Below, piece after piece: positions 2,029-22,085 of a DNA stretch of 64,000 bases. Position numbers and translations under genes: made by a program. The notes under the pieces were generated by a model. The model did no database searches, was not told the origin of the DNA, and was given only the letters and a program-made list of their open reading frames with translations. How positions within the stretch are numbered: position 1 is the first letter of the stretch; the number at the start of each line of letters is the position of its first letter. The DNA is from a virus (lineage: Duplodnaviria > Heunggongvirae > Uroviricota > Caudoviricetes): the IMG/VR virus record IMGVR_UViG_3300037067_008629, positions 22,078 through 86,077 of that record; one strand, written 5' to 3'.

Positions 2029-2439
2029 TCATTTAGCTAAAGATTTTAATTCTTCAATCATTGTGACTCGCAGACCATTAAGTTCTGGAGTAATTGTTTT
2101 CCATTCTTCATTCTTAAGACGAAACTGTGAAACACTCATCCATTTATTACAAAACGCAGATAGTTCGGTTTCGGAAACACTAAGATTATCTGCTACCCAA
2201 CGTTCTGGGCAGGTTAATTCGCAGTGTGCAAAAAATGCTTTGCATCCTTCTTTTAACCATCTTTGATATTCAGGAGTACCTTGTAACGAAGTTCCTAGTA
2301 AATTTGCTAGACGGCGAGCAATTAAGGTTCTACTTGGTTCTGAAATATCACCTTTTAATTCTGCAACAAATTCCGCAAGATTAGCTAATCTAAGCATTAT
2401 CACTCCAATTATACTGATCATAAAATGATGAAGTACCAC
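2029..2439 (-). CDS. hypothetical protein
   Basis: 136-aa ORF packed tightly against its neighbours. I recognise no motif. Confidence 0.4.
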   Translation of the reverse strand: MVLHHFMISIIGVIMLRLANLAEFVAELKGDISEPSRTLIARRLANLLGTSLQGTPEYQRWLKEGCKAFFAHCELTCPERWVADNLSVSETELSAFCNKWMSVSQFRLKNEEWKTITPELNGLRVTMIEELKSLAK

Positions 2440-3352
2440 ACTCTGTATTCCCGGCCATTGTTAAAATAGCACTTCTTGGACAACGACTAAATGTTCGATA
2501 ACCACAAAGATGTGCAAAGGCACGCGAGCCAGGAGTACCGGGTTGTTTGTTTATAAACTTGGCAAGCTTGCGTCGTAATCCCCGTTTTAATAAATGATTT
2601 CGATGCTTCTTAAGAGGTTGATCATCATATACCCAGTGTGGCTTAGTCCAAGGACCTCGGACAACAAGCGTCTTCAGATAGTCTAATACCTTATTATTGC
2701 CACCACGACGTACATATTCTTCCGAGACATAAATTCCATAACGAATTAATGCTTGTTCATAACCACGCCAAACTTCGGCCCCATCTTGATGTTCGTCAGA
2801 GTATTTAAGATACTTTAAAATTCGTAGTACCGCAATCTGTGCGGCCTTTAATTCAGGAGTATCTAAGCAACCAGCACATTTCTGAAAACTATGGTATGGA
2901 ATAAACACTTGATATTGTCTATTACGCATCTGACGATCAGATGCTGGTCCCAATAAACTTCGATCAGGTTCTGCCGTCCATGAATTCCGACCAGTCACTG
3001 CCTGTGTGGTCGTAAAACCCTGGGATGCAGACCAGTTAACAGGCCGGTGCTCTGGTCTTCCACCATATAATGCAAGGTAGATATCTCGTGCGGATCGTTG
3101 ATCTGAATCATCACTAAAACCGATACCTGGATTCTGTAACTGATAATATGTCCCTATTGGCTGGGCTACATCAAGTCCAGGGCGCATATCATTTTCAGGA
3201 ACCATTACAGTAAGTTCAGGAACTCCTTGTGCAAACGAGTTACGGACCTGATGTTCCCATGTATCTCGGTAATCAGATGATAAACCTTGATACCAGTTGT
3301 AGATTGCCGGATAAGACCGCAAATATTCTTGAAAAGTTACAGGTCTAGGCAT
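2390..3352 (-). CDS. hypothetical protein
   Basis: 320-aa ORF. I recognise no family signature. Confidence 0.45.
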   Translation of the reverse strand: MPRPVTFQEYLRSYPAIYNWYQGLSSDYRDTWEHQVRNSFAQGVPELTVMVPENDMRPGLDVAQPIGTYYQLQNPGIGFSDDSDQRSARDIYLALYGGRPEHRPVNWSASQGFTTTQAVTGRNSWTAEPDRSLLGPASDRQMRNRQYQVFIPYHSFQKCAGCLDTPELKAAQIAVLRILKYLKYSDEHQDGAEVWRGYEQALIRYGIYVSEEYVRRGGNNKVLDYLKTLVVRGPWTKPHWVYDDQPLKKHRNHLLKRGLRRKLAKFINKQPGTPGSRAFAHLCGYRTFSRCPRSAILTMAGNTECGTSSFYDQYNWSDNA

Positions 3353-4196: not shown

Positions 4197-4409
4197 TTAA
4201 CGATTTATGGCCCTAAACTTAAAAGTGTAATTCTTAAATTTATAGTTGGCAAAACGTCTTTGAATGGCTTCTAAAGCTTGATCTCGCGCTTTTTCAGTCT
4301 CATACCAGGAATCAGATGCCCAATTATTACTAAAATTGGACCAAGATTCAATGCCAAAACGTTTCTTTTTAGACTTTTTCTTGTATCGGAGTTCTTCGGG
4401 GTCTCTCAT
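4197..4409 (-). CDS. small basic hypothetical protein
   Basis: 70 aa and Lys-rich (YKKKSKKKRFG). Confidence 0.3.
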   Translation of the reverse strand: MRDPEELRYKKKSKKKRFGIESWSNFSNNWASDSWYETEKARDQALEAIQRRFANYKFKNYTFKFRAINR

Positions 4410-5401
4410 CTAACCCTCACAAACGAGCAACATTTGCTAAAATCTTTCAGGCTACTACATCCAACGTAGGTGCAGGCTGATCGAAGGCCGCCAGCTATTT
4501 CCAATAAGATAAGATTTACTGGACCCTTGCTTGGCACTATGGAACATCGTCCCTCAGATGCTGCATACTCTGGGATGCCACCATAATACTTTTCTTGTGC
4601 TTCTTGGCTTGACATCCCGTAGACTTTTAAACCATCTTCAGTCCATGTGCCTTCACATTCTATAGCTCCTGCAACCATCCCACCAAGCATTACAAAATCG
4701 GCTCCCGCTCCAAAACACTTGGCAATATCTCCAGAGGTCTGACAACCCCCATCAGCCATGACTAATCCGCCAAGCCCGTGAGCAGCGTCCGCTGATTCTA
4801 TAACAGCACTCAGCTGTGGATAGCCGACTCCTGTTACTTTTCTAGTCTCACAAAACCGCCCAGGGCCTATTCCCACCTTAACTACATCAGCACCAGCGAG
4901 AATCAATTCTTGGGTCATTTCTGGAACTGCAACATTTCCAGCAACAAGCATACAATCAGGATATAATTCGCGTAGCTTCTGTACCTTTTGAACAAAATAT
5001 TTTGTATGGCCATTCGCAGCGTCCAGACAAATTCTTGGTAGCGGATGACCTAATTGAGTTATAAGTTCTTCAAGTTTATTTAAATCTTCATCTTTGAGTC
5101 CTAGAGTATAGAATAAATAATCTGTATAAGAAGATGCAAATATTTTTTTAAGATTCTCTAAACTATAAAACTTATGTAGAGCACAGCAAGCTTTTAGTTG
5201 CCAGAGTTCTTTTGCAATTCCACAGCATCCCGTGACATCCATGTTGGAAGCACAAATTGGAAGGCAAGTGAATGTCTTCTTAGAATGAAGTAGCTTAAAT
5301 GTTCTAACTAACTCAACACTCTTACGACTGGGAGCATCGCTCCGTTTAGGTCGGATCAAAACATCATCAAAATCGAGTTTAATTCCCTCTTCAATTCTCA
5401 T
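4406..5401 (-). CDS. guaC: GMP reductase (IMPDH/GMPR family)
   Basis: [39 protein letters not shown]...[10 protein letters not shown] is a near-verbatim match to the E. coli GuaC active-site region (GIGPGSVCTTR...[22 protein letters not shown]), including the catalytic Cys. The 331-aa length has no CBS insert, which favours GMP reductase over IMPDH. Confidence 0.8.
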   Translation of the reverse strand: [331 protein letters not shown]

Positions 5402-5651
5402 AATTACCTTTTAATAAAAAGCCAATAATAAATAGTATACCGCTTAGTGGGATTGTAAAAAATAGAAGCCATGGCATCATACACATGTCATAAAGAATAC
5501 CACCAATATCTACATTAACAACCTCTGGCCCTCGTGCAGTTAAATGTACGCCCAGTGATCCGGCAATAGTACAAGCTAGCCAGCAACTTGCCACTGGTCC
5601 CAGTATGCCAAGAATCGCTAATACTATGCAAATAGTCCCAATCTTTTTCAT
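5391..5651 (-). CDS. small membrane protein
   Basis: 86 aa with two to three hydrophobic helices. Confidence 0.4.
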   Translation of the reverse strand: MKKIGTICIVLAILGILGPVASCWLACTIAGSLGVHLTARGPEVVNVDIGGILYDMCMMPWLLFFTIPLSGILFIIGFLLKGNYEN

Positions 5652-6061
5652 TCATCACTCCAGGGGAAGTTTAACCATAAAGGTGGTTTTTCTTGTAGAT
5701 AGTAAGTTGGCTTATAACTGCCTTCTTTCCAAAATAAAACTGCTGTGTCATGTTTACCAAAATGCTTTTCGCAAGTCTGCATCGTGTAACCGCCATCAAT
5801 TAAATCATCAACAATTAAGCAAGGTCCTTCAGGCAACTGACCTTCAATAATCGGAATTTCGCGTGGTGTATGGCCATTATAATGGCTAATTCGTATCTCT
5901 GCATGAGGAATCTCTAACTTCGCAGCTAATGGCTTGGAAATGTGCAATCCACCATTAGCAATTCCAACAACATGCTGGTATCTTGATTTATGTGGCAAGA
6001 TTAAACTTGCCAGATAGGCGATCATTATATCAACTTGCCAAGATTGTAGATTTAAGAACAT
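5648..6061 (-). CDS. gpt: xanthine-guanine phosphoribosyltransferase-like (type I PRTase)
   Basis: The PRPP-binding motif is CLIVDDLIDGGYT. Length and layout resemble E. coli Gpt (VVGIANGGL...; C-terminal WLNFPW against WIEQPW). Confidence 0.65.
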   Translation of the reverse strand: MFLNLQSWQVDIMIAYLASLILPHKSRYQHVVGIANGGLHISKPLAAKLEIPHAEIRISHYNGHTPREIPIIEGQLPEGPCLIVDDLIDGGYTMQTCEKHFGKHDTAVLFWKEGSYKPTYYLQEKPPLWLNFPWSDE

Positions 6062-7113
6062 TAATCTACTCCAAATCTTTTGCGGGTATCATTAAGAGCG
6101 GCATTAGCTTCCGTCGTGGTATTAAAAGCCCCTAAAGTATATTTTCTACCTTGAATTTTAATCTCGGCAATATATTTTCCTCGTTGTTTATGGTACCAAA
6201 CACCTTTTATTCCAGTAGAACTATTTGTCTGGGCCCCACGATTATGCAAATTTCTTGATTTTGTGACAATTCGTAAATTGTCTCTGCGATTATCCAATGG
6301 GTCTTGATTTACATGGTCAATCGTCAAATTTGATTTTGCATTAGGGACTTCTAGTCCCATTCGTTGAATAATTTCTTGGTGCATATAGATTGTTTTAGTT
6401 TTTCCCTTAATTCGAGTCTTACGCATGGCTCGATAAACCTTACTCTGTGGCGTAACACACCAGCACCACTGGTTTAAATGCCGCCAATCTTCTGGACTTA
6501 TTTTTGCTTCAAATGATGGTGCCACTTTAATTGTATCAAGGTCATAAACCATTCCATAATCAAAGAATTTCCATCTATTATAAGTTTCGACCGAAGAATC
6601 ATATGCTACACTTCTTAGATAAGTATATAATTCTTTCCACTTGGAGAAAATCATTTGATGTGGAATAGTTGCCAGCAACCAATCTGGAGCCTCGGCCTTA
6701 CCCTGTTCACAATGCACCAAAATTGGCTTCCCCTCAGTATTAGCTCTAAATACCTCATTCCATGTCCCCACGGAGTAGGCATTAAAATCAATATGACAAA
6801 TAATAAAATCTGAAACATCGACCATTCTTAGATCAATATCTTTAATCGGCTGCATCATTTGCGTAGCCGTATCAAAGTGTCCTGCCCGTTTTTCAATTGA
6901 GCGTAGTTTCCGATGCTCAGAATCTTCGATACCTTCTGCAATCGGCTTCTGTATTGGGTCCATCCAAATAATACCTAAATCTTTCAAATCATGTTTGATT
7001 CGCTGTCGCCAGACTACTCCTCCATCCTTAACAAAATCCATCGGCCCAGCTAAATAACATCGGTTATAAAATAGCCTATTCATGTAATAACTCCGCCCAT
7101 TGTGAGGAACCAA
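6061..7113 (-). CDS. nucleoside 2-deoxyribosyltransferase/DNPH1-like domain fused in frame to an HNH-AP2 endonuclease domain
   Basis: The N-terminal half carries YLAGPMDF and GTWNEVFRANTEGKPILV, the PF05014-type signature with its catalytic Glu. The C-terminal roughly 150 aa carry an HNH motif (LTIDHVNQDPLDNRRDNLRIVTKSRNLH) followed by an AP2 domain (IKGVWYHKQRGKYIAEIKIQGRKYTLGAFNTTTEANAA). No stop codon separates the two parts. Confidence 0.6.
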   Translation of the reverse strand: MVPHNGRSYYMNRLFYNRCYLAGPMDFVKDGGVVWRQRIKHDLKDLGIIWMDPIQKPIAEGIEDSEHRKLRSIEKRAGHFDTATQMMQPIKDIDLRMVDVSDFIICHIDFNAYSVGTWNEVFRANTEGKPILVHCEQGKAEAPDWLLATIPHQMIFSKWKELYTYLRSVAYDSSVETYNRWKFFDYGMVYDLDTIKVAPSFEAKISPEDWRHLNQWCWCVTPQSKVYRAMRKTRIKGKTKTIYMHQEIIQRMGLEVPNAKSNLTIDHVNQDPLDNRRDNLRIVTKSRNLHNRGAQTNSSTGIKGVWYHKQRGKYIAEIKIQGRKYTLGAFNTTTEANAALNDTRKRFGVD

Positions 7114-7798
7114 TACGAGTACAACCGAGGTCTAAGTAATTTGCTACGTCATCATAAGAATGTATACCCCCGCTAGCTTTAATTTTTACATTAGTTCCTT
7201 CTAAAGCTTTTTTCATAGTTAAGATATCTTGTACACTTGCCCCACGAGTACCAAAACCAGTGGATGTTTTTACATAGTCTGCACCAGCATCGGCAGCTAT
7301 GAGACATGCTTGGGTAATCTGGTCTGGAGTTAAATAACAAGTTTCCAGAATTACTTTGAGAATTATTTCCTTACTTAACCAATCTATGCTAGCCCGAGTC
7401 TCATAAATATCATCGTGTACATAGTCCACGTCACCATTTAGGAGGGCTGCATAATTCATTACCATATCTATTTCAATAGCACCAGCTTTAATAGCTAATT
7501 GTGCTTCTTCACTTTTAGTAAAAGAATCATTACACCCAAGTGGAAATCCAACTACAGTTGAAATAGGCACTCGAAATCCAGCGGCCCAATAAATATAGCA
7601 CGGATGCACACAAACTGAAGCGAAGCCATTGGCTTTCGCCAGTAAACAAGCTTTTTGCACATCATGTGGGCTTGTAGTTGGCTTTAAAACCGCATAATCC
7701 AATGCAGCCGCTATTTGCTCATTAGAATACATAAGACTCCAATTGTTCAGATATTGAATTTCCAAGGTACAGTAATACCTGGCTGAGAAGCCAAGCAA
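7076..7798 (-). CDS. deoC: deoxyribose-phosphate aldolase
   Basis: DeoC-like TIM barrel with VKIKASGGIHSYDDV, ADYVKTSTGF and the conserved Lys positions. Length is 240 aa. Confidence 0.75.
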   Translation of the reverse strand: MLGFSARYYCTLEIQYLNNWSLMYSNEQIAAALDYAVLKPTTSPHDVQKACLLAKANGFASVCVHPCYIYWAAGFRVPISTVVGFPLGCNDSFTKSEEAQLAIKAGAIEIDMVMNYAALLNGDVDYVHDDIYETRASIDWLSKEIILKVILETCYLTPDQITQACLIAADAGADYVKTSTGFGTRGASVQDILTMKKALEGTNVKIKASGGIHSYDDVANYLDLGCTRIGSSQWAELLHE

Positions 7799-7852: not shown

Positions 7853-8578
7853 TCATGTCTTGACCTTATTCTTTGATCCCTTTGGACGACCCCGTTTCTT
7901 TATAGCTAAAGTGGCTGTTTTTAAAACATCCACGGTATCATCATAAGCTTGTGGTTCTTCACGCTTTTGCTTACCTCGCGGCTTACCCTTATCAGAACGC
8001 TGCTTACGTTTCTTAAGGGGTTGACCCATAGCAAGTTCAACTGCTTGCAATAACGGCTCTTCTGGCTCTTCTGGCTCTTCTGGCTCTTCTGGCTCTTCTA
8101 CTTCTAAGTCTACATCTGGCTCCGAATCAAAATATTCAATATCGTCTTCTTCGTCCTTAAACTTTTGCACATGACAATCCATCAATACAGCGAGAATACC
8201 TCGATCTAGTTTACCATACGCCCACTTTGGGATGTCCATAGGTTTACGACCAAAGATGGCTTTTAGTCCACGCATAGTTGGACACTGTAATGCCTTCTCC
8301 CAGTCCTTATAATGTTTTTCGCAAGCTTCCAAAGCTTTCTTCATAGTCTTGAATAATTTACGACGTGGTTCAACAAATGCCCACATATCTGTCTTCCCAT
8401 CTTCAAAGTTTCCAGGAACACAGCAAAAGACTGTGGCTTGAAATCCAGGTGGTACCCGAACTCCAAATACCATTCGTCGCCATGTAATCCTATACTTTGA
8501 CTTTGAAATCCAGTCCTTACGCAACTTAGCACTAAGTTTATCTTTATTAAATCTGTTGGTGCGTTTAAATTCCATCAT
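7853..8578 (-). CDS. acidic-repeat, AT-hook-containing protein
   Basis: (EEP)n acidic repeat encoded by a 9-bp tandem repeat. The C-terminal KKRGRPKGSKNK is a canonical AT-hook (GRP core), and the C-terminus is Lys/Arg-rich. Confidence 0.5.
   Translation of the reverse strand: MMEFKRTNRFNKDKLSAKLRKDWISKSKYRITWRRMVFGVRVPPGFQATVFCCVPGNFEDGKTDMWAFVEPRRKLFKTMKKALEACEKHYKDWEKALQCPTMRGLKAIFGRKPMDIPKWAYGKLDRGILAVLMDCHVQKFKDEEDDIEYFDSEPDVDLEVEEPEEPEEPEEPEEPLLQAVELAMGQPLKKRKQRSDKGKPRGKQKREEPQAYDDTVDVLKTATLAIKKRGRPKGSKNKVKT
8055..8099. repeat. perfect 9-bp tandem repeat (ggctcttct)x5, in frame within CDS 7853..8578
   Basis: Read directly: ggctcttct repeated five times at 8055-8099. It encodes (EEP)5 on the minus strand. 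Confidence 0.9.
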
Positions 8579-9395: not shown

Positions 9396-10156
9396 ACATT
9401 CTCCCATAGATTATCTTTAACTTGAATCAAACCATTCTCTTCTGCAATATGCTCGCAGTAATTTCGATCTATTTCAATTGACATACAACCTACATTGAGA
9501 CGTTTACAGACTCTCATTACAGTTCCAGTGCCACTACAAGCGTCAATCACTGCATCTTGTGTGCCGCAACTAAGTTTAATACATCGCTCCACCAGTGTCT
9601 CCCCTAGCTGGGTGGGATGCCATGCTCGTCGTTGCTTTGAGTTGCCAGTAACTCTTGGAACATCGAAGACATCGCCTGGGACCCTCCCACGGGCGTCTGC
9701 TCGCTTGTCTCCGTGCTCTTGACGCCAGGAAGGTACTCGAATAGCATCAGGATACAACTCAACGCCAGGATGCATCAAGCGAACTAATGGACGATGATTA
9801 TTTCCTAGATCATGTTGATTATGTTGCCCGAAGGTGAACGTCTGGACGCAAGCTTTAGCCAATAGTTGCTTATCTGCAACAAGCTTAGTTACAAAAGACC
9901 CCATATCAAATGTCCACTTGGCATTGTACGAGAACCATGTGATATCAGCAACCGTAGTTGACAGCCGTAGAACATATTCTAACCAAATTAAATATTCTTC
10001 AGTTGATCGTTTATCATCATATTCGCCATATTTTAGGCCGATGGCATCTGGCGGGTCCATGAATAGCATACGCCAACGAGGCTTTAACTCTCTAAGTACA
10101 CTTTCAATAGGCGAACAGACTAGACTATATTTACTCATCTGTATATTATGACACAA
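9392..10156 (-). CDS. DNA methyltransferase (beta-class N6-adenine/N4-cytosine)
   Basis: The motif IV-like MDPPD lies N-terminal to the motif I VIDACSGTGTV, which is the beta-class permutation. That order is typical of ParB-associated phage methyltransferases. Confidence 0.6.
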   Translation of the reverse strand: MCHNIQMSKYSLVCSPIESVLRELKPRWRMLFMDPPDAIGLKYGEYDDKRSTEEYLIWLEYVLRLSTTVADITWFSYNAKWTFDMGSFVTKLVADKQLLAKACVQTFTFGQHNQHDLGNNHRPLVRLMHPGVELYPDAIRVPSWRQEHGDKRADARGRVPGDVFDVPRVTGNSKQRRAWHPTQLGETLVERCIKLSCGTQDAVIDACSGTGTVMRVCKRLNVGCMSIEIDRNYCEHIAEENGLIQVKDNLWENV

Positions 10157-11405
10157 AAATGGGACTTGTCAAGGCGGATATTGGATCATCACGATATTTT
10201 AAAAGATGCCCCTGAAGAGTGGCCATACTCCACTCATTTGGTGTTCCACGCTCAGAGAATTGTTTTGCTACTTCAGGAAGTGCTGGAAAGAATCGGAGAA
10301 ATAGTTTTTTCATTTGATCTCTGGATGCATTTGCCAATTCCAGACTTAAATCCACACGCCCCGGACGAATTAAAGCTGGATCAAGAGTTTCAATATGATT
10401 TGTTGTCATAAATAGAATTCGACCTTCACTGGCCATAACACCATCTATTGCATTCAATAATCCAGAGAAAGTTACACTTTCCTTATCATCAGCTTTTTTA
10501 CGTTGAAGGAATACACAATCAATGTCTTCAATAAGTATCATGCTATTAGTTGGAATCGACGACATTAATTCTAATAAACCCTCATTACTTAAAGAATGTG
10601 AACTCAGATTCAATGTATAGATATCAAACTGAAGTGTTGAGGCTAATGCAATAACCAAGGAACTCTTACCATTTCCAGGTGCCCCATGTAATAAATAACC
10701 GCGTCGGTATGGAATACCACGATCATTATACCAACTTTCAGATTTTTGAAACAAGCAAATATCTTCTAAAATTCGATCAGACAATCCATCAGCTAGAATC
10801 ACTGATTCCATTGGCCGTGGTAGTCGTTTACCTACAGCAATCCAACTTCCATAGTCGTGGGATGCAATAGTTACTCTTGCATCTAGTGGTGGGTGATAGA
10901 CTTGACGAGCTTCTTCCAGTAAATCTAATACAATTTGTTTGTTGCGACTGAATAATGTAAAGTTAAATGTCTCATAAAATCCCAGCGCTCCGGCTCCGTT
11001 ACCACCCCCCTTGTCACTACCTTCTCGACGATCTCGACGTAACACTACCAAACGATGACGATAGAAGAAAAAATGCAGCCCTGGAGCTGGGGATAAAATA
11101 ACTTGTGGCTTTTTTAAATTTGAGTCACCAATATCATTAGTTTCATGTCGTTGCCGTTTAGTTTGAACAGTCCATAACCGACATCGCCGTTGATAAGGAT
11201 GTTGGGCTAACCATACATTTAACCACTTAAAAGCTTCATCACGATCTGGCACATCTACAACTGTTATAAGGCGTCGTTTTGTCCAGTCCCAAATATGATT
11301 AGGAACCCGACGTAAATAGGCAAATACTACACCTACAACTGCCAATAAAGCTCCCCCACTTAGGAACTGATTGCTAGACAATTGGTCTATTAATGATTGC
11401 CACAT
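10146..11405 (-). CDS. BCS1-like AAA+ ATPase with N-terminal transmembrane segment
   Basis: N-terminal hydrophobic helix (GGALLAVVGVVFAYL). Walker A is GYLLHGAPGNGKSS and Walker B is ILIEDIDCVF. The layout resembles BCS1 (membrane anchor plus a single AAA module). Confidence 0.6.
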   Translation of the reverse strand: MWQSLIDQLSSNQFLSGGALLAVVGVVFAYLRRVPNHIWDWTKRRLITVVDVPDRDEAFKWLNVWLAQHPYQRRCRLWTVQTKRQRHETNDIGDSNLKKPQVILSPAPGLHFFFYRHRLVVLRRDRREGSDKGGGNGAGALGFYETFNFTLFSRNKQIVLDLLEEARQVYHPPLDARVTIASHDYGSWIAVGKRLPRPMESVILADGLSDRILEDICLFQKSESWYNDRGIPYRRGYLLHGAPGNGKSSLVIALASTLQFDIYTLNLSSHSLSNEGLLELMSSIPTNSMILIEDIDCVFLQRKKADDKESVTFSGLLNAIDGVMASEGRILFMTTNHIETLDPALIRPGRVDLSLELANASRDQMKKLFLRFFPALPEVAKQFSERGTPNEWSMATLQGHLLKYRDDPISALTSPIFVS

Positions 11406-21693: not shown

Positions 21694-22085
21694 TATTCGC
21701 CTATAAGTTTCGCTTCAGTATGAGGCCACATTTCATACGACCAACATGGCCCACGTAAACTAACTGATTTAACTAATCCTGTGACATAACGGCCATGACG
21801 GTGTAGATCAATAATAAGATGTCGGTTGCGAACTATAAGTCCTGCAAATAAAGTACCGTTTTCGTCAATAGAACCCGCTATTTGACATTTATATTGGCCC
21901 GAAATAGCTTCTGTATTACTACTCGAAACATATAATGTTCTTTTTTTGAATACAAATTCAAAAACATGTTTTGTAGTTTCGACAAAAATAGTAGTGCCAA
22001 CAGGCAACTTAGCTGGTTCCACCACTCCTTCTAGCCTTACACTTTCGAGTTCTTCTTCGCTTGGATACATGTTTTCTTGTCGCAT
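21693..22085 (-). CDS. hypothetical protein
   Basis: 130-aa ORF. Confidence 0.35.
   Translation of the reverse strand: MRQENMYPSEEELESVRLEGVVEPAKLPVGTTIFVETTKHVFEFVFKKRTLYVSSSNTEAISGQYKCQIAGSIDENGTLFAGLIVRNRHLIIDLHRHGRYVTGLVKSVSLRGPCWSYEMWPHTEAKLIGE

Follow-up and report, generated by a model that had tools for sequence, protein, structure and literature searches.

A candidate HNH-AP2 homing endonuclease carried as an in-frame C-terminal extension of a deoxyribosyltransferase-like phage gene

How does an endonuclease come to be encoded as the tail of an enzyme of nucleotide metabolism? The question is raised by a gene on the minus strand of a 64,000-nucleotide stretch of viral DNA (the window; positions 22,078 to 86,077 of the IMG/VR record IMGVR_UViG_3300037067_008629, numbered here from its first letter), in which a domain related to nucleoside deoxyribosyltransferases (NDT) is followed in the same reading frame by an HNH endonuclease motif and an AP2 DNA-binding domain. 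A preliminary description of the locus, made from the sequence alone, offered two explanations: a homing endonuclease gene (HEG) that had invaded the 3' end of a host gene, which lost its stop codon, or a genuine chimeric enzyme. The evidence presented below favours the first. We consider it likely, though well short of certain, that the gene represents a selfish HNH-AP2 endonuclease hitch-hiking translationally on a gene for a deoxynucleoside monophosphate (dNMP) N-glycosidase-like enzyme, within a salvage cluster that also encodes DeoC, a phosphoribosyltransferase and GMP reductase.

Positions 6061..7113 of the minus strand form a single uninterrupted open reading frame (ORF) of 350 amino acids when counted from a TTG codon, exactly where it had been located before, and neither a stop codon nor a frameshift separates the domains. 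These follow one another in the order NDT/DNPH1 fold (aa 1-177), HNH motif (D256-H257...N281) and AP2 domain (aa 290-338), and an AlphaFold model of the whole protein, built on 24 sequences, had a predicted local distance difference test (pLDDT) score of 89. The start codon at 7113 was probably chosen too far upstream and adds 10 codons. In the alignment of homologs every N-terminus, of the form MNRL(F/L/K)..., begins at the ATG at 7083-7081. Taking into account that a GGAG sequence precedes this ATG and that the gene start overlaps the deoC stop codon TAG at 7078-7076 (ATGAATAG), the real product is most likely the protein of 340 amino acids starting at ATG 7083, not the 350-residue version starting at TTG 7113. 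At the other end, the TAA stop codon (6063-6061) overlaps the ATG of the phosphoribosyltransferase gene (6061-6059, TAATG); because of the two overlaps the fusion gene appears to be translationally coupled to its neighbours on both sides. The gene call in the source record (P0001, 326 aa) starts 14 codons 3' of the conserved MNRLFYNRCYLAGP N-terminus and thereby drops the catalytic Tyr10.

For the N-terminal domain the match to Pfam Nuc_deoxyrib_tr (PF05014; aa 10-129, E 6e-6) scored 26.8 bits, just below the cutoff of 28.8, and PF15891 scored 17.4 bits against a cutoff of 30, i.e. neither Pfam reached the gathering threshold of the NDT superfamily. Precomputed PF05014/PF15891 matches are carried by three NDT-only homologs. 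Among PDB sequences no single-sequence match was found, and the best result of a profile search had an E of only 0.036; because these searches were essentially negative, the family placement rests on fold and motifs. Comparison of the domain model with the PDB by Foldseek yielded 33 matches at E<=1e-3, the best being 8pqq (E 5e-6, probability 1.0, target TM score 0.66-0.77), and the top 50 matches listed were all NDTs, DNPH1, BcmB (a CMP N-glycosidase), YtoQ or structural-genomics homologs of the same fold. As modelled, the domain has the flavodoxin-like alpha/beta fold of NDT and DNPH1. Its motif residues are Y10, D84, D89, D92, S104 and E110, the last being the putative nucleophile in the sequence GTWNE. 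Among 27 diverse family members Y10, D84, D89, G106 and E110 do not vary and at least 90% have D92; the six motif residues are all kept in the fused proteins, except for a T in place of S104 in the relative L016. The YLAG and GT..E segments align to the corresponding motifs of the Trypanosoma brucei NDT, and an invariant R170-W171-x-F173-F motif closes the domain. Fold and motifs thus bear out the PF05014-like domain of the preliminary description.

The C-terminal part of the protein (the tail) matched the HNH endonucleases of PHROG 99/4578 over aa 224-338 (E 3e-30 and 1e-23). Pfam HNH_3 (PF13392) was matched by aa 251-278 with 30.6 bits, above the cutoff of 24.8; alignment A3 shows no variation at D256, H257, N265 and N281, and the HNH motif is intact in 21 of the 23 fused homologs described below. 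The match to Pfam AP2 (PF00847; aa 290-328, E 1.4e-5) scored 25.8 bits and remained below the cutoff of 33.3. In a separate model of the tail (pLDDT 88.6) strands were found at tail residues 117-120, 125-132 and 135-142, followed by a helix at 145-159, which corresponds to the three-stranded sheet packed on a C-terminal helix of solved AP2 domains. The best fold match in the PDB was the AP2 domain of Arabidopsis TEM1 (root-mean-square deviation 1.4 A over 45 columns, 31% identity, probability 1.0, weak E of 0.025) and the second was the HNH homing endonuclease I-HmuI (probability 0.93, equally weak E of 0.025). A complete HNH motif and an AP2 domain, both proposed previously, can therefore be accepted, the former by Pfam and the latter by its fold. 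HNH-AP2 proteins are a described family of homing endonucleases (Magnani 2004, as cited in PMC10448857).

The two halves of the protein have very different distributions. Among 5.8 billion proteins searched there were 15 full-length homologs with the same architecture (43-50% identity) and 8 proteins of ~190 aa that matched the N-terminal half only. In IMG/VR, 369 viral contigs encode a relative, and 7 of the best 80 of these carry the fusion, the rest being NDT-only proteins of 175-210 aa. In total, 23 different fused sequences were collected from assemblies of JGI, ENA, Logan, NCBI and IMG/VR. All keep the same frame across the junction, by which an assembly or missing-stop artefact is excluded. 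The fusion was not found in any of 50,697 deposited phage genomes; in the same collection the C-terminal half matched more than 1,500 records, all at less than 60% identity, and the annotated ones among the matches listed were mostly HNH endonucleases. When the tail alone was used in an exhaustive search, 102,551 representative proteins were obtained at E<=1e-3 and 15,787 at E<=1e-10. Most of them are free-standing and 140-190 aa long, or are tandem copies, and the best free-standing matches were 49-50% identical, as close as the tails of other fused proteins.

The preliminary description had allowed that the C-terminal region might prove native to the enzyme. Since most relatives are NDT-only and end just past the RWxFF motif, the tail is not native to the NDT family. 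Nor is the fusion private to this genome; it is an old event, common to a clade of phages. In a tree of the N-terminal domains the fused genes form one clade (bootstrap 83/100, core 100/100). One NDT-only gene (L049) is nested inside the fused clade, and this position indicates loss of the tail.

Comparison with tail-less homologs, suggested in the preliminary description as a means of finding the insertion point, placed it at aa ~178-183, the junction itself being aa ~178-182. NDT-only homologs end 0-30 residues past the RWxFF motif. Free-standing HNH-AP2 proteins have the native N-terminus M-(R)-x-I-x-L-T-x-G-x-x-A-x-V-(S/D)-x-x-D-Y, which pairs with D183-T-I-K-V-A-P-S... of the fusion in the alignment. 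As the former stop and the latter begin to align at this place, the two parts appear to be joined essentially without a linker. The insertion adjoins the invariant R170/W171, as expected of an element that targets conserved sequence.

If the tail is a mobile element, its history should be separable from that of the N-terminal domain, and several observations point in this direction. Pairwise identities of the N- and C-terminal parts were only weakly correlated (Spearman 0.28). Up to aa ~175, L012, L014 and P0008 share 70-90% identity with the main clade, their N-terminal domains being 74-84% identical to those of that clade, whereas across the tail the value drops to 20-45%. The nearest relatives of these tails are free-standing proteins, at 43-44% identity as against 31-37% for other fused tails; apparently, this group carries an HNH-AP2 tail of a different lineage at the same junction. 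P0010 combines the N-terminal domain of the P0002/P0013 group with the tail of the P0007 group, the switch lying at aa ~165-175. To judge from these comparisons, and with moderate support from the tree, the histories of host gene and tail are incongruent, with recombination breakpoints at the junction. Decayed tails also occur: the AP2 domain is missing from P0012-14, the HNH core from P0015 and the catalytic Asp from P0014, and the N-terminal domains of all of these are fully conserved. In L016 (3698-4730) the fused homolog is broken in the AP2 region at a run of A residues (…GVWFNKKKK*), the rest of AP2 being readable in another frame; this frameshift may be real decay or an error of sequencing in the homopolymer.

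The most direct indication of mobility was found at locus L137, which encodes the nearest free-standing relative of the fused tails (P0031; 50% identical to P0006 and 42% to the tail in the window). P0031 starts with a GTG within the 3' end of the NDT gene, 50 nt before the NDT stop codon and in the +1 frame, and is followed by a DUF2061 gene and then a SEC-C gene. The flanks of P0031 are 76-78% identical in DNA sequence to those in the sibling locus L019. Because they are 487 nt apart in L137 and 20 nt apart in L019, L137 contains a clean insertion of ~470 nt right after the RWYFFN codons and before DUF2061, and related genomes thus differ in whether this one site is occupied. By its NDT gene, L137 falls into another clade, which is otherwise tail-less (82-88% identity to L042, L021 and L034). 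Closely related HNH-AP2 modules are therefore found at one site in two diverged clades of the host gene, unfused in one and fused in the other, and an indel of one nucleotide would interconvert the two states. In sibling phages, HNH-AP2 genes have a hot spot in the NDT / DUF2061 / SEC-C stretch (L137, 1-900; empty in L019, 4350-4760): in L040 (4600-5260) a different, unrelated HNH-AP2 gene lies between DUF2061 and SEC-C, one gene downstream of NDT, and is absent from L019.

Two other ways of accommodating the endonuclease were considered and rejected. The only Pfam matches in the fusion protein were to NDT, HNH_3 and AP2, with none to Hint or intein families; in addition, the insert is C-terminal and the stop codon directly follows AP2, which argues against an intein. 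An internal start at M178 releasing a separate endonuclease is disfavoured as a general mechanism because this Met is not conserved and the only GGA lies directly beside the ATG, leaving no spaced Shine-Dalgarno sequence. A tail gene with a start of its own, as in free-standing HEGs, was not seen in the window and was encountered only in L137.

These findings can be brought together in the following scheme. An HNH-AP2 HEG would have colonised the 3' end of a phage gene of the NDT superfamily, directly after the RWxFF codons. The HEG would then have lost its own start and the host gene its stop codon, with the result that the endonuclease would be made as a C-terminal extension from the ribosome-binding site of the enzyme. 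The N-terminal domain would act in dNMP catabolism and hand deoxyribose-5-phosphate to the adjacent DeoC, the two halves of the protein probably working independently. The AP2 domain, together with the N-terminal beta region of the tail, would bind tail-less alleles, either where the RWxFF region is encoded or at the junction downstream of it, and the HNH site would nick or cut related phage genomes whose NDT gene has no insert. In co-infection, repair from the carrier genome would copy the tail and the junction into the tail-less allele. The preliminary description had named an intron-less allele as the target; no intron is involved, and the target would be a HEG-less allele. What the data document is the fused architecture with its insertion point, its sporadic occurrence, the unfused relative, the incongruent histories of tail and host gene, the decayed copies and the selection on intact tails; we infer that the tail is an active nuclease with a given target site, that it homes, that the gene yields one polypeptide and that the enzyme is specific for dNMP hydrolysis.

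Several observations weigh against this scheme. The support for two tail origins in the tree was moderate (64/100, against 30/100 for a single origin), and L137 could be a frameshifted derivative of the fusion, not its precursor. The tail is near-fixed in the fused clade (23 of the 24 members), where purifying selection has preserved it while synonymous sites became saturated. Its GC content (0.36-0.38) barely differs from that of the flanks, any compositional anomaly being negligible; no further HNH-AP2 copies were found in the window; and the overlap of the tail stop codon with the next gene's start gives the impression of full integration into the operon.

Most of these points would equally suit a domesticated chimeric enzyme, in which the tail was co-opted to act with the N-terminal domain and the salvage genes. 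The tail could cut or bind host DNA and channel deoxynucleotides to the dNMP N-glycosidase, DeoC, the phosphoribosyltransferase and GMP reductase, or it could benefit the carrier by shutting out competing phages. Such a role predicts the same near-fixation and purifying selection, and would agree with the persistence of the tail on N-terminal domains that have diverged to 43-56% identity, the intact catalytic motif of most fused homologs, the single copy, the ameliorated composition and the tight translational coupling on both sides; a functional fusion of a phage NDT-family enzyme, DmtZ-DutZ, is also known (PMC12884076). Where omega, the ratio of nonsynonymous (dN) to synonymous (dS) divergence, could be computed, it was 0.04-0.09 for the N-terminal domain and ~0.08-0.14 for tails of the same lineage. 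As dS was saturated or incalculable in nearly all pairs and only a handful gave a usable value, the selection argument is only semi-quantitative. Nevertheless, since omega is ~0.1 in the computable pairs, the intact tails appear to be maintained by purifying selection, which could act through continued mobility or through a benefit to the host.

What speaks against domestication is that ~90% of the family works tail-less, that in one subclade the junction is apparently occupied by another HNH-AP2 lineage and that it coincides with recombination breakpoints, that truncated and mutated tails stand beside fully intact N-terminal domains, and that a closely related free-standing gene occupies the same site. 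Moreover, HNH-AP2 enzymes are generally site-specific nickases or cutters and not exonucleases producing dNMPs. Of the two explanations first offered we therefore prefer the invading HEG, and regard the chimeric enzyme as unlikely, though it retains an appreciable share of the probability. Still more doubtful is a specific form of it, in which the tail would be the DNA-targeting and cutting arm of a polypeptide that also hydrolyses the released deoxynucleotides, or would bring the NDT-fold domain to DNA as a base-excising enzyme. In the first of these versions the protein would form, with DeoC, the phosphoribosyltransferase and GMP reductase, a compact machine turning the purines of host DNA into the pool needed by an AT-richer phage.

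The tail might also be an inert relic, a former homing endonuclease that is now a non-functional passenger on the enzyme. Degenerate tails do occur in relatives (P0012-15, L016), the AP2 match is under the Pfam cutoff, and the life-cycle model of homing endonucleases predicts decay once an element has become fixed. In the window, however, every catalytic and structural motif residue is intact, the tail model folds confidently, and dN of the tail (0.17-0.31) is far under the saturated dS in comparable lineages, which makes a relic improbable. An artefact joining two genes through a missing stop codon, a frameshift error or chimeric assembly can be dismissed almost entirely, for, despite the origin of the window in a single metagenomic assembly and the homopolymer frameshift in the relative L016, the 23 sequences come from different samples, assemblers and databases, and an identical protein is encoded on an 86-kb JGI contig.

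Each part of the gene preferred here as a HEG riding on a host enzyme is of a known kind. Free-standing HNH-AP2 HEGs of phages, cyanobacteria and protists have the same domain order (an N-terminal beta region, the HNH_3 core and a C-terminal AP2), the same size (~160 aa) and the same D-H...N...N motif. Like the fused module, they and the related IPA-HNH genes of the phage ICP1 (Barth et al. 2023, PMC10448857) occur sporadically, include frameshifted or truncated copies and lie at boundaries of genetic exchange. In contrast to the free-standing genes, the fused module lacks its own start and ribosome-binding site, continues the reading frame of a metabolic gene and is inherited clade-wide. Endonuclease ORFs of introns that run on in frame from the upstream exon, as well as inteins, likewise express a selfish endonuclease through host translation and have a conserved insertion site, but the fusion has neither an intron RNA structure nor a Hint domain, and the terminal insert leaves nothing to splice. 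In T4-like phages HEGs split or flank genes, as does mobE in nrdA/nrdB (PMC2790892). These, too, are HNH HEGs at or inside a conserved gene of nucleotide metabolism that mobilise flanking DNA; they keep separate ORFs or split the host gene, whereas here the host ORF is whole and extended.

What is unusual is that a HEG has persisted in a clade of phages as the in-frame end of a metabolic gene. Free-standing phage homing endonucleases normally keep their own ORFs, and no direct precedent for the in-frame C-terminal fusion of one was found in the searched literature. The NDT+HNH+AP2 architecture is that of a host gene plus a mobile element and should not be read by annotators as a new bifunctional enzyme; the shortened source gene call, with its lost Tyr, calls for the same caution. 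The locus offers a compact and testable system for studying how selfish nucleases gain expression, how far enzymes tolerate C-terminal cargo, and where parasitism ends and domestication begins.

The substrate of the host enzyme can be approached through S104. This residue, located six residues before the Glu nucleophile, aligns to an Asp of the T. brucei NDT (2a0k), and in relatives the position is occupied by Ser, Ala, Pro, Thr or Met. Rcl has Ser87 where NDT has Asp92, and the small residue leaves room for the 5'-phosphate. In place of the Asp of nucleoside transferases, the dNMP hydrolases DNPH1 and DmtZ carry a residue that is small and uncharged, and DmtZ is described as a dNMP N-glycosidase / deoxyribose-5-phosphate transferase (NAR 2026, PMC12884076). 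Because of S104, and because the adjacent gene encodes DeoC, which consumes deoxyribose-5-phosphate, the N-terminal domain is most likely a DNPH1/DmtZ-like dNMP N-glycosidase and not a nucleoside transferase. With DNPH1/Rcl and DmtZ it shares the NDT-superfamily fold, the Tyr/Asp/Glu catalytic residues and the small uncharged residue, and DmtZ is likewise phage-encoded and either stand-alone or fused, in that case to DutZ (PMC12884076). It differs from them in its very low sequence similarity and in having a mobile nuclease, not a pathway enzyme, as fusion partner. A Z-genome (PurZ/DmtZ) context was rejected, as no match to PurZ, DatZ or MazZ was found among the window ORFs scanned, a scan that covered part of the ORFs.

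The window has the genes of a tailed phage (tape-measure protein, PolA-type polymerase, primase and helicase), and the fusion gene is one of five neighbouring genes with the same direction of transcription: DeoC, the NDT::HNH-AP2 fusion, the phosphoribosyltransferase, a small membrane protein and GMP reductase. The coordinates are collected in Table 1. Of 89 related loci (L001-L089), 36 have DeoC encoded immediately 5' of the NDT-like gene and 35 have a GMP reductase homolog nearby; in L016 a dUTPase gene, not DeoC, lies upstream of the fused gene. The recurrent cluster suggests a phage route in which dNMP is split into base and deoxyribose-5-phosphate, the latter is cleaved by DeoC, and the purine base is re-salvaged and converted (GMP to IMP). 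No description of a DeoC and deoxyribosyltransferase pair in phages was found in the searched literature. The DeoC / NDT-like / phosphoribosyltransferase / GMP reductase cluster, recurrent in many uncultured phages, may be the biologically weightier lead.

Table 1. Positions of the fusion gene, its parts and the neighbouring salvage genes in the window
Feature	Coordinates	Strand	Basis and remarks
Whole fusion gene	6061..7083	-	340 codons (7083..6064) plus TAA stop 6063-6061; homologs start MNRL... here
Shine-Dalgarno sequence GGAG	7091..7094	-	7 nt upstream of ATG 7083, within the 3' end of deoC; read from sequence
NDT/DNPH1-superfamily domain, aa 1-177	6553..7083	-	Pfam, Foldseek vs PDB, family alignment, T. 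brucei NDT alignment
Junction, aa 178-182 (M-V-Y-D-L)	6538..6552	-	Homolog alignments; identity breakpoints at aa ~165-190
HNH-AP2 homing-endonuclease module, aa 183-340	6064..6537	-	PHROG 99/4578
HNH catalytic core, aa 251-281	6241..6333	-	D256-H257...N265...N269...N278/N281; Pfam HNH_3
AP2 DNA-binding domain, aa 290-338	6070..6216	-	Three strands and a helix; Pfam AP2 below cutoff, fold match
DeoC (deoxyribose-phosphate aldolase), upstream	7076..7798	-	Pfam DeoC E 3e-16; likely true start near 7732 (MYSNEQIAAALD...)
Phosphoribosyltransferase, downstream	5648..6061	-	Pfam Pribosyltran E 2e-11
GMP reductase / IMPDH-family gene	4406..5401	-	Pfam IMPDH E 1e-59

Some further proteins related to either half of the fusion were noted. 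Among the relatives of the tail, P0026, P0027, P0029, P0034, P0036 and P0046 are proteins of 350-430 aa, each of which matches HNH_3 twice and AP2 two or three times, that is, tandem in-frame copies; the HNH-AP2 endonuclease family may have a general tendency to stack in-frame on the ORF before it. P0003 (484 aa; L001, 6001-7455) has an extra C-terminal extension of ~140 aa after AP2. No Pfam match was found in the extension and it scored only 2.7 bits against a hidden Markov model of the tail, hence a second, degenerate HNH-AP2 copy is not supported. In a scan of GTDB genomes only contigs of metagenome-assembled genomes (MAGs) matched, none of them with the fusion. The closest cellular matches to the NDT-like domain (L090-L092, 47-49% identity) are in MAGs of Planctomycetia, Planctomycetaceae and Thermoguttaceae; they may hint at the hosts for part of the phage group, or may be mis-binned phage contigs.

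Three other ORFs of the window, all on the minus strand, deserve mention. The 241-aa ORF at 7853-8578 contains an acidic PEEPEEPEEPEEP repeat and a C-terminal basic KKRGRPKGSKNK segment resembling an AT-hook; it had no significant family match, only a weak sub-threshold match to Pfam YL1 (E 0.013) and no PHROG match. The 320-aa ORF at 2390-3352 has a DenV-like pyrimidine-dimer DNA glycosylase domain at aa 149-222 in a protein much longer than usual. Finally, the 419-aa ORF at 10146-11405 combines BCS1_N (E 3e-32) with AAA and a BCS1 lid, and resembles a mitochondrial-chaperone-like AAA ATPase, which is unusual in a phage.

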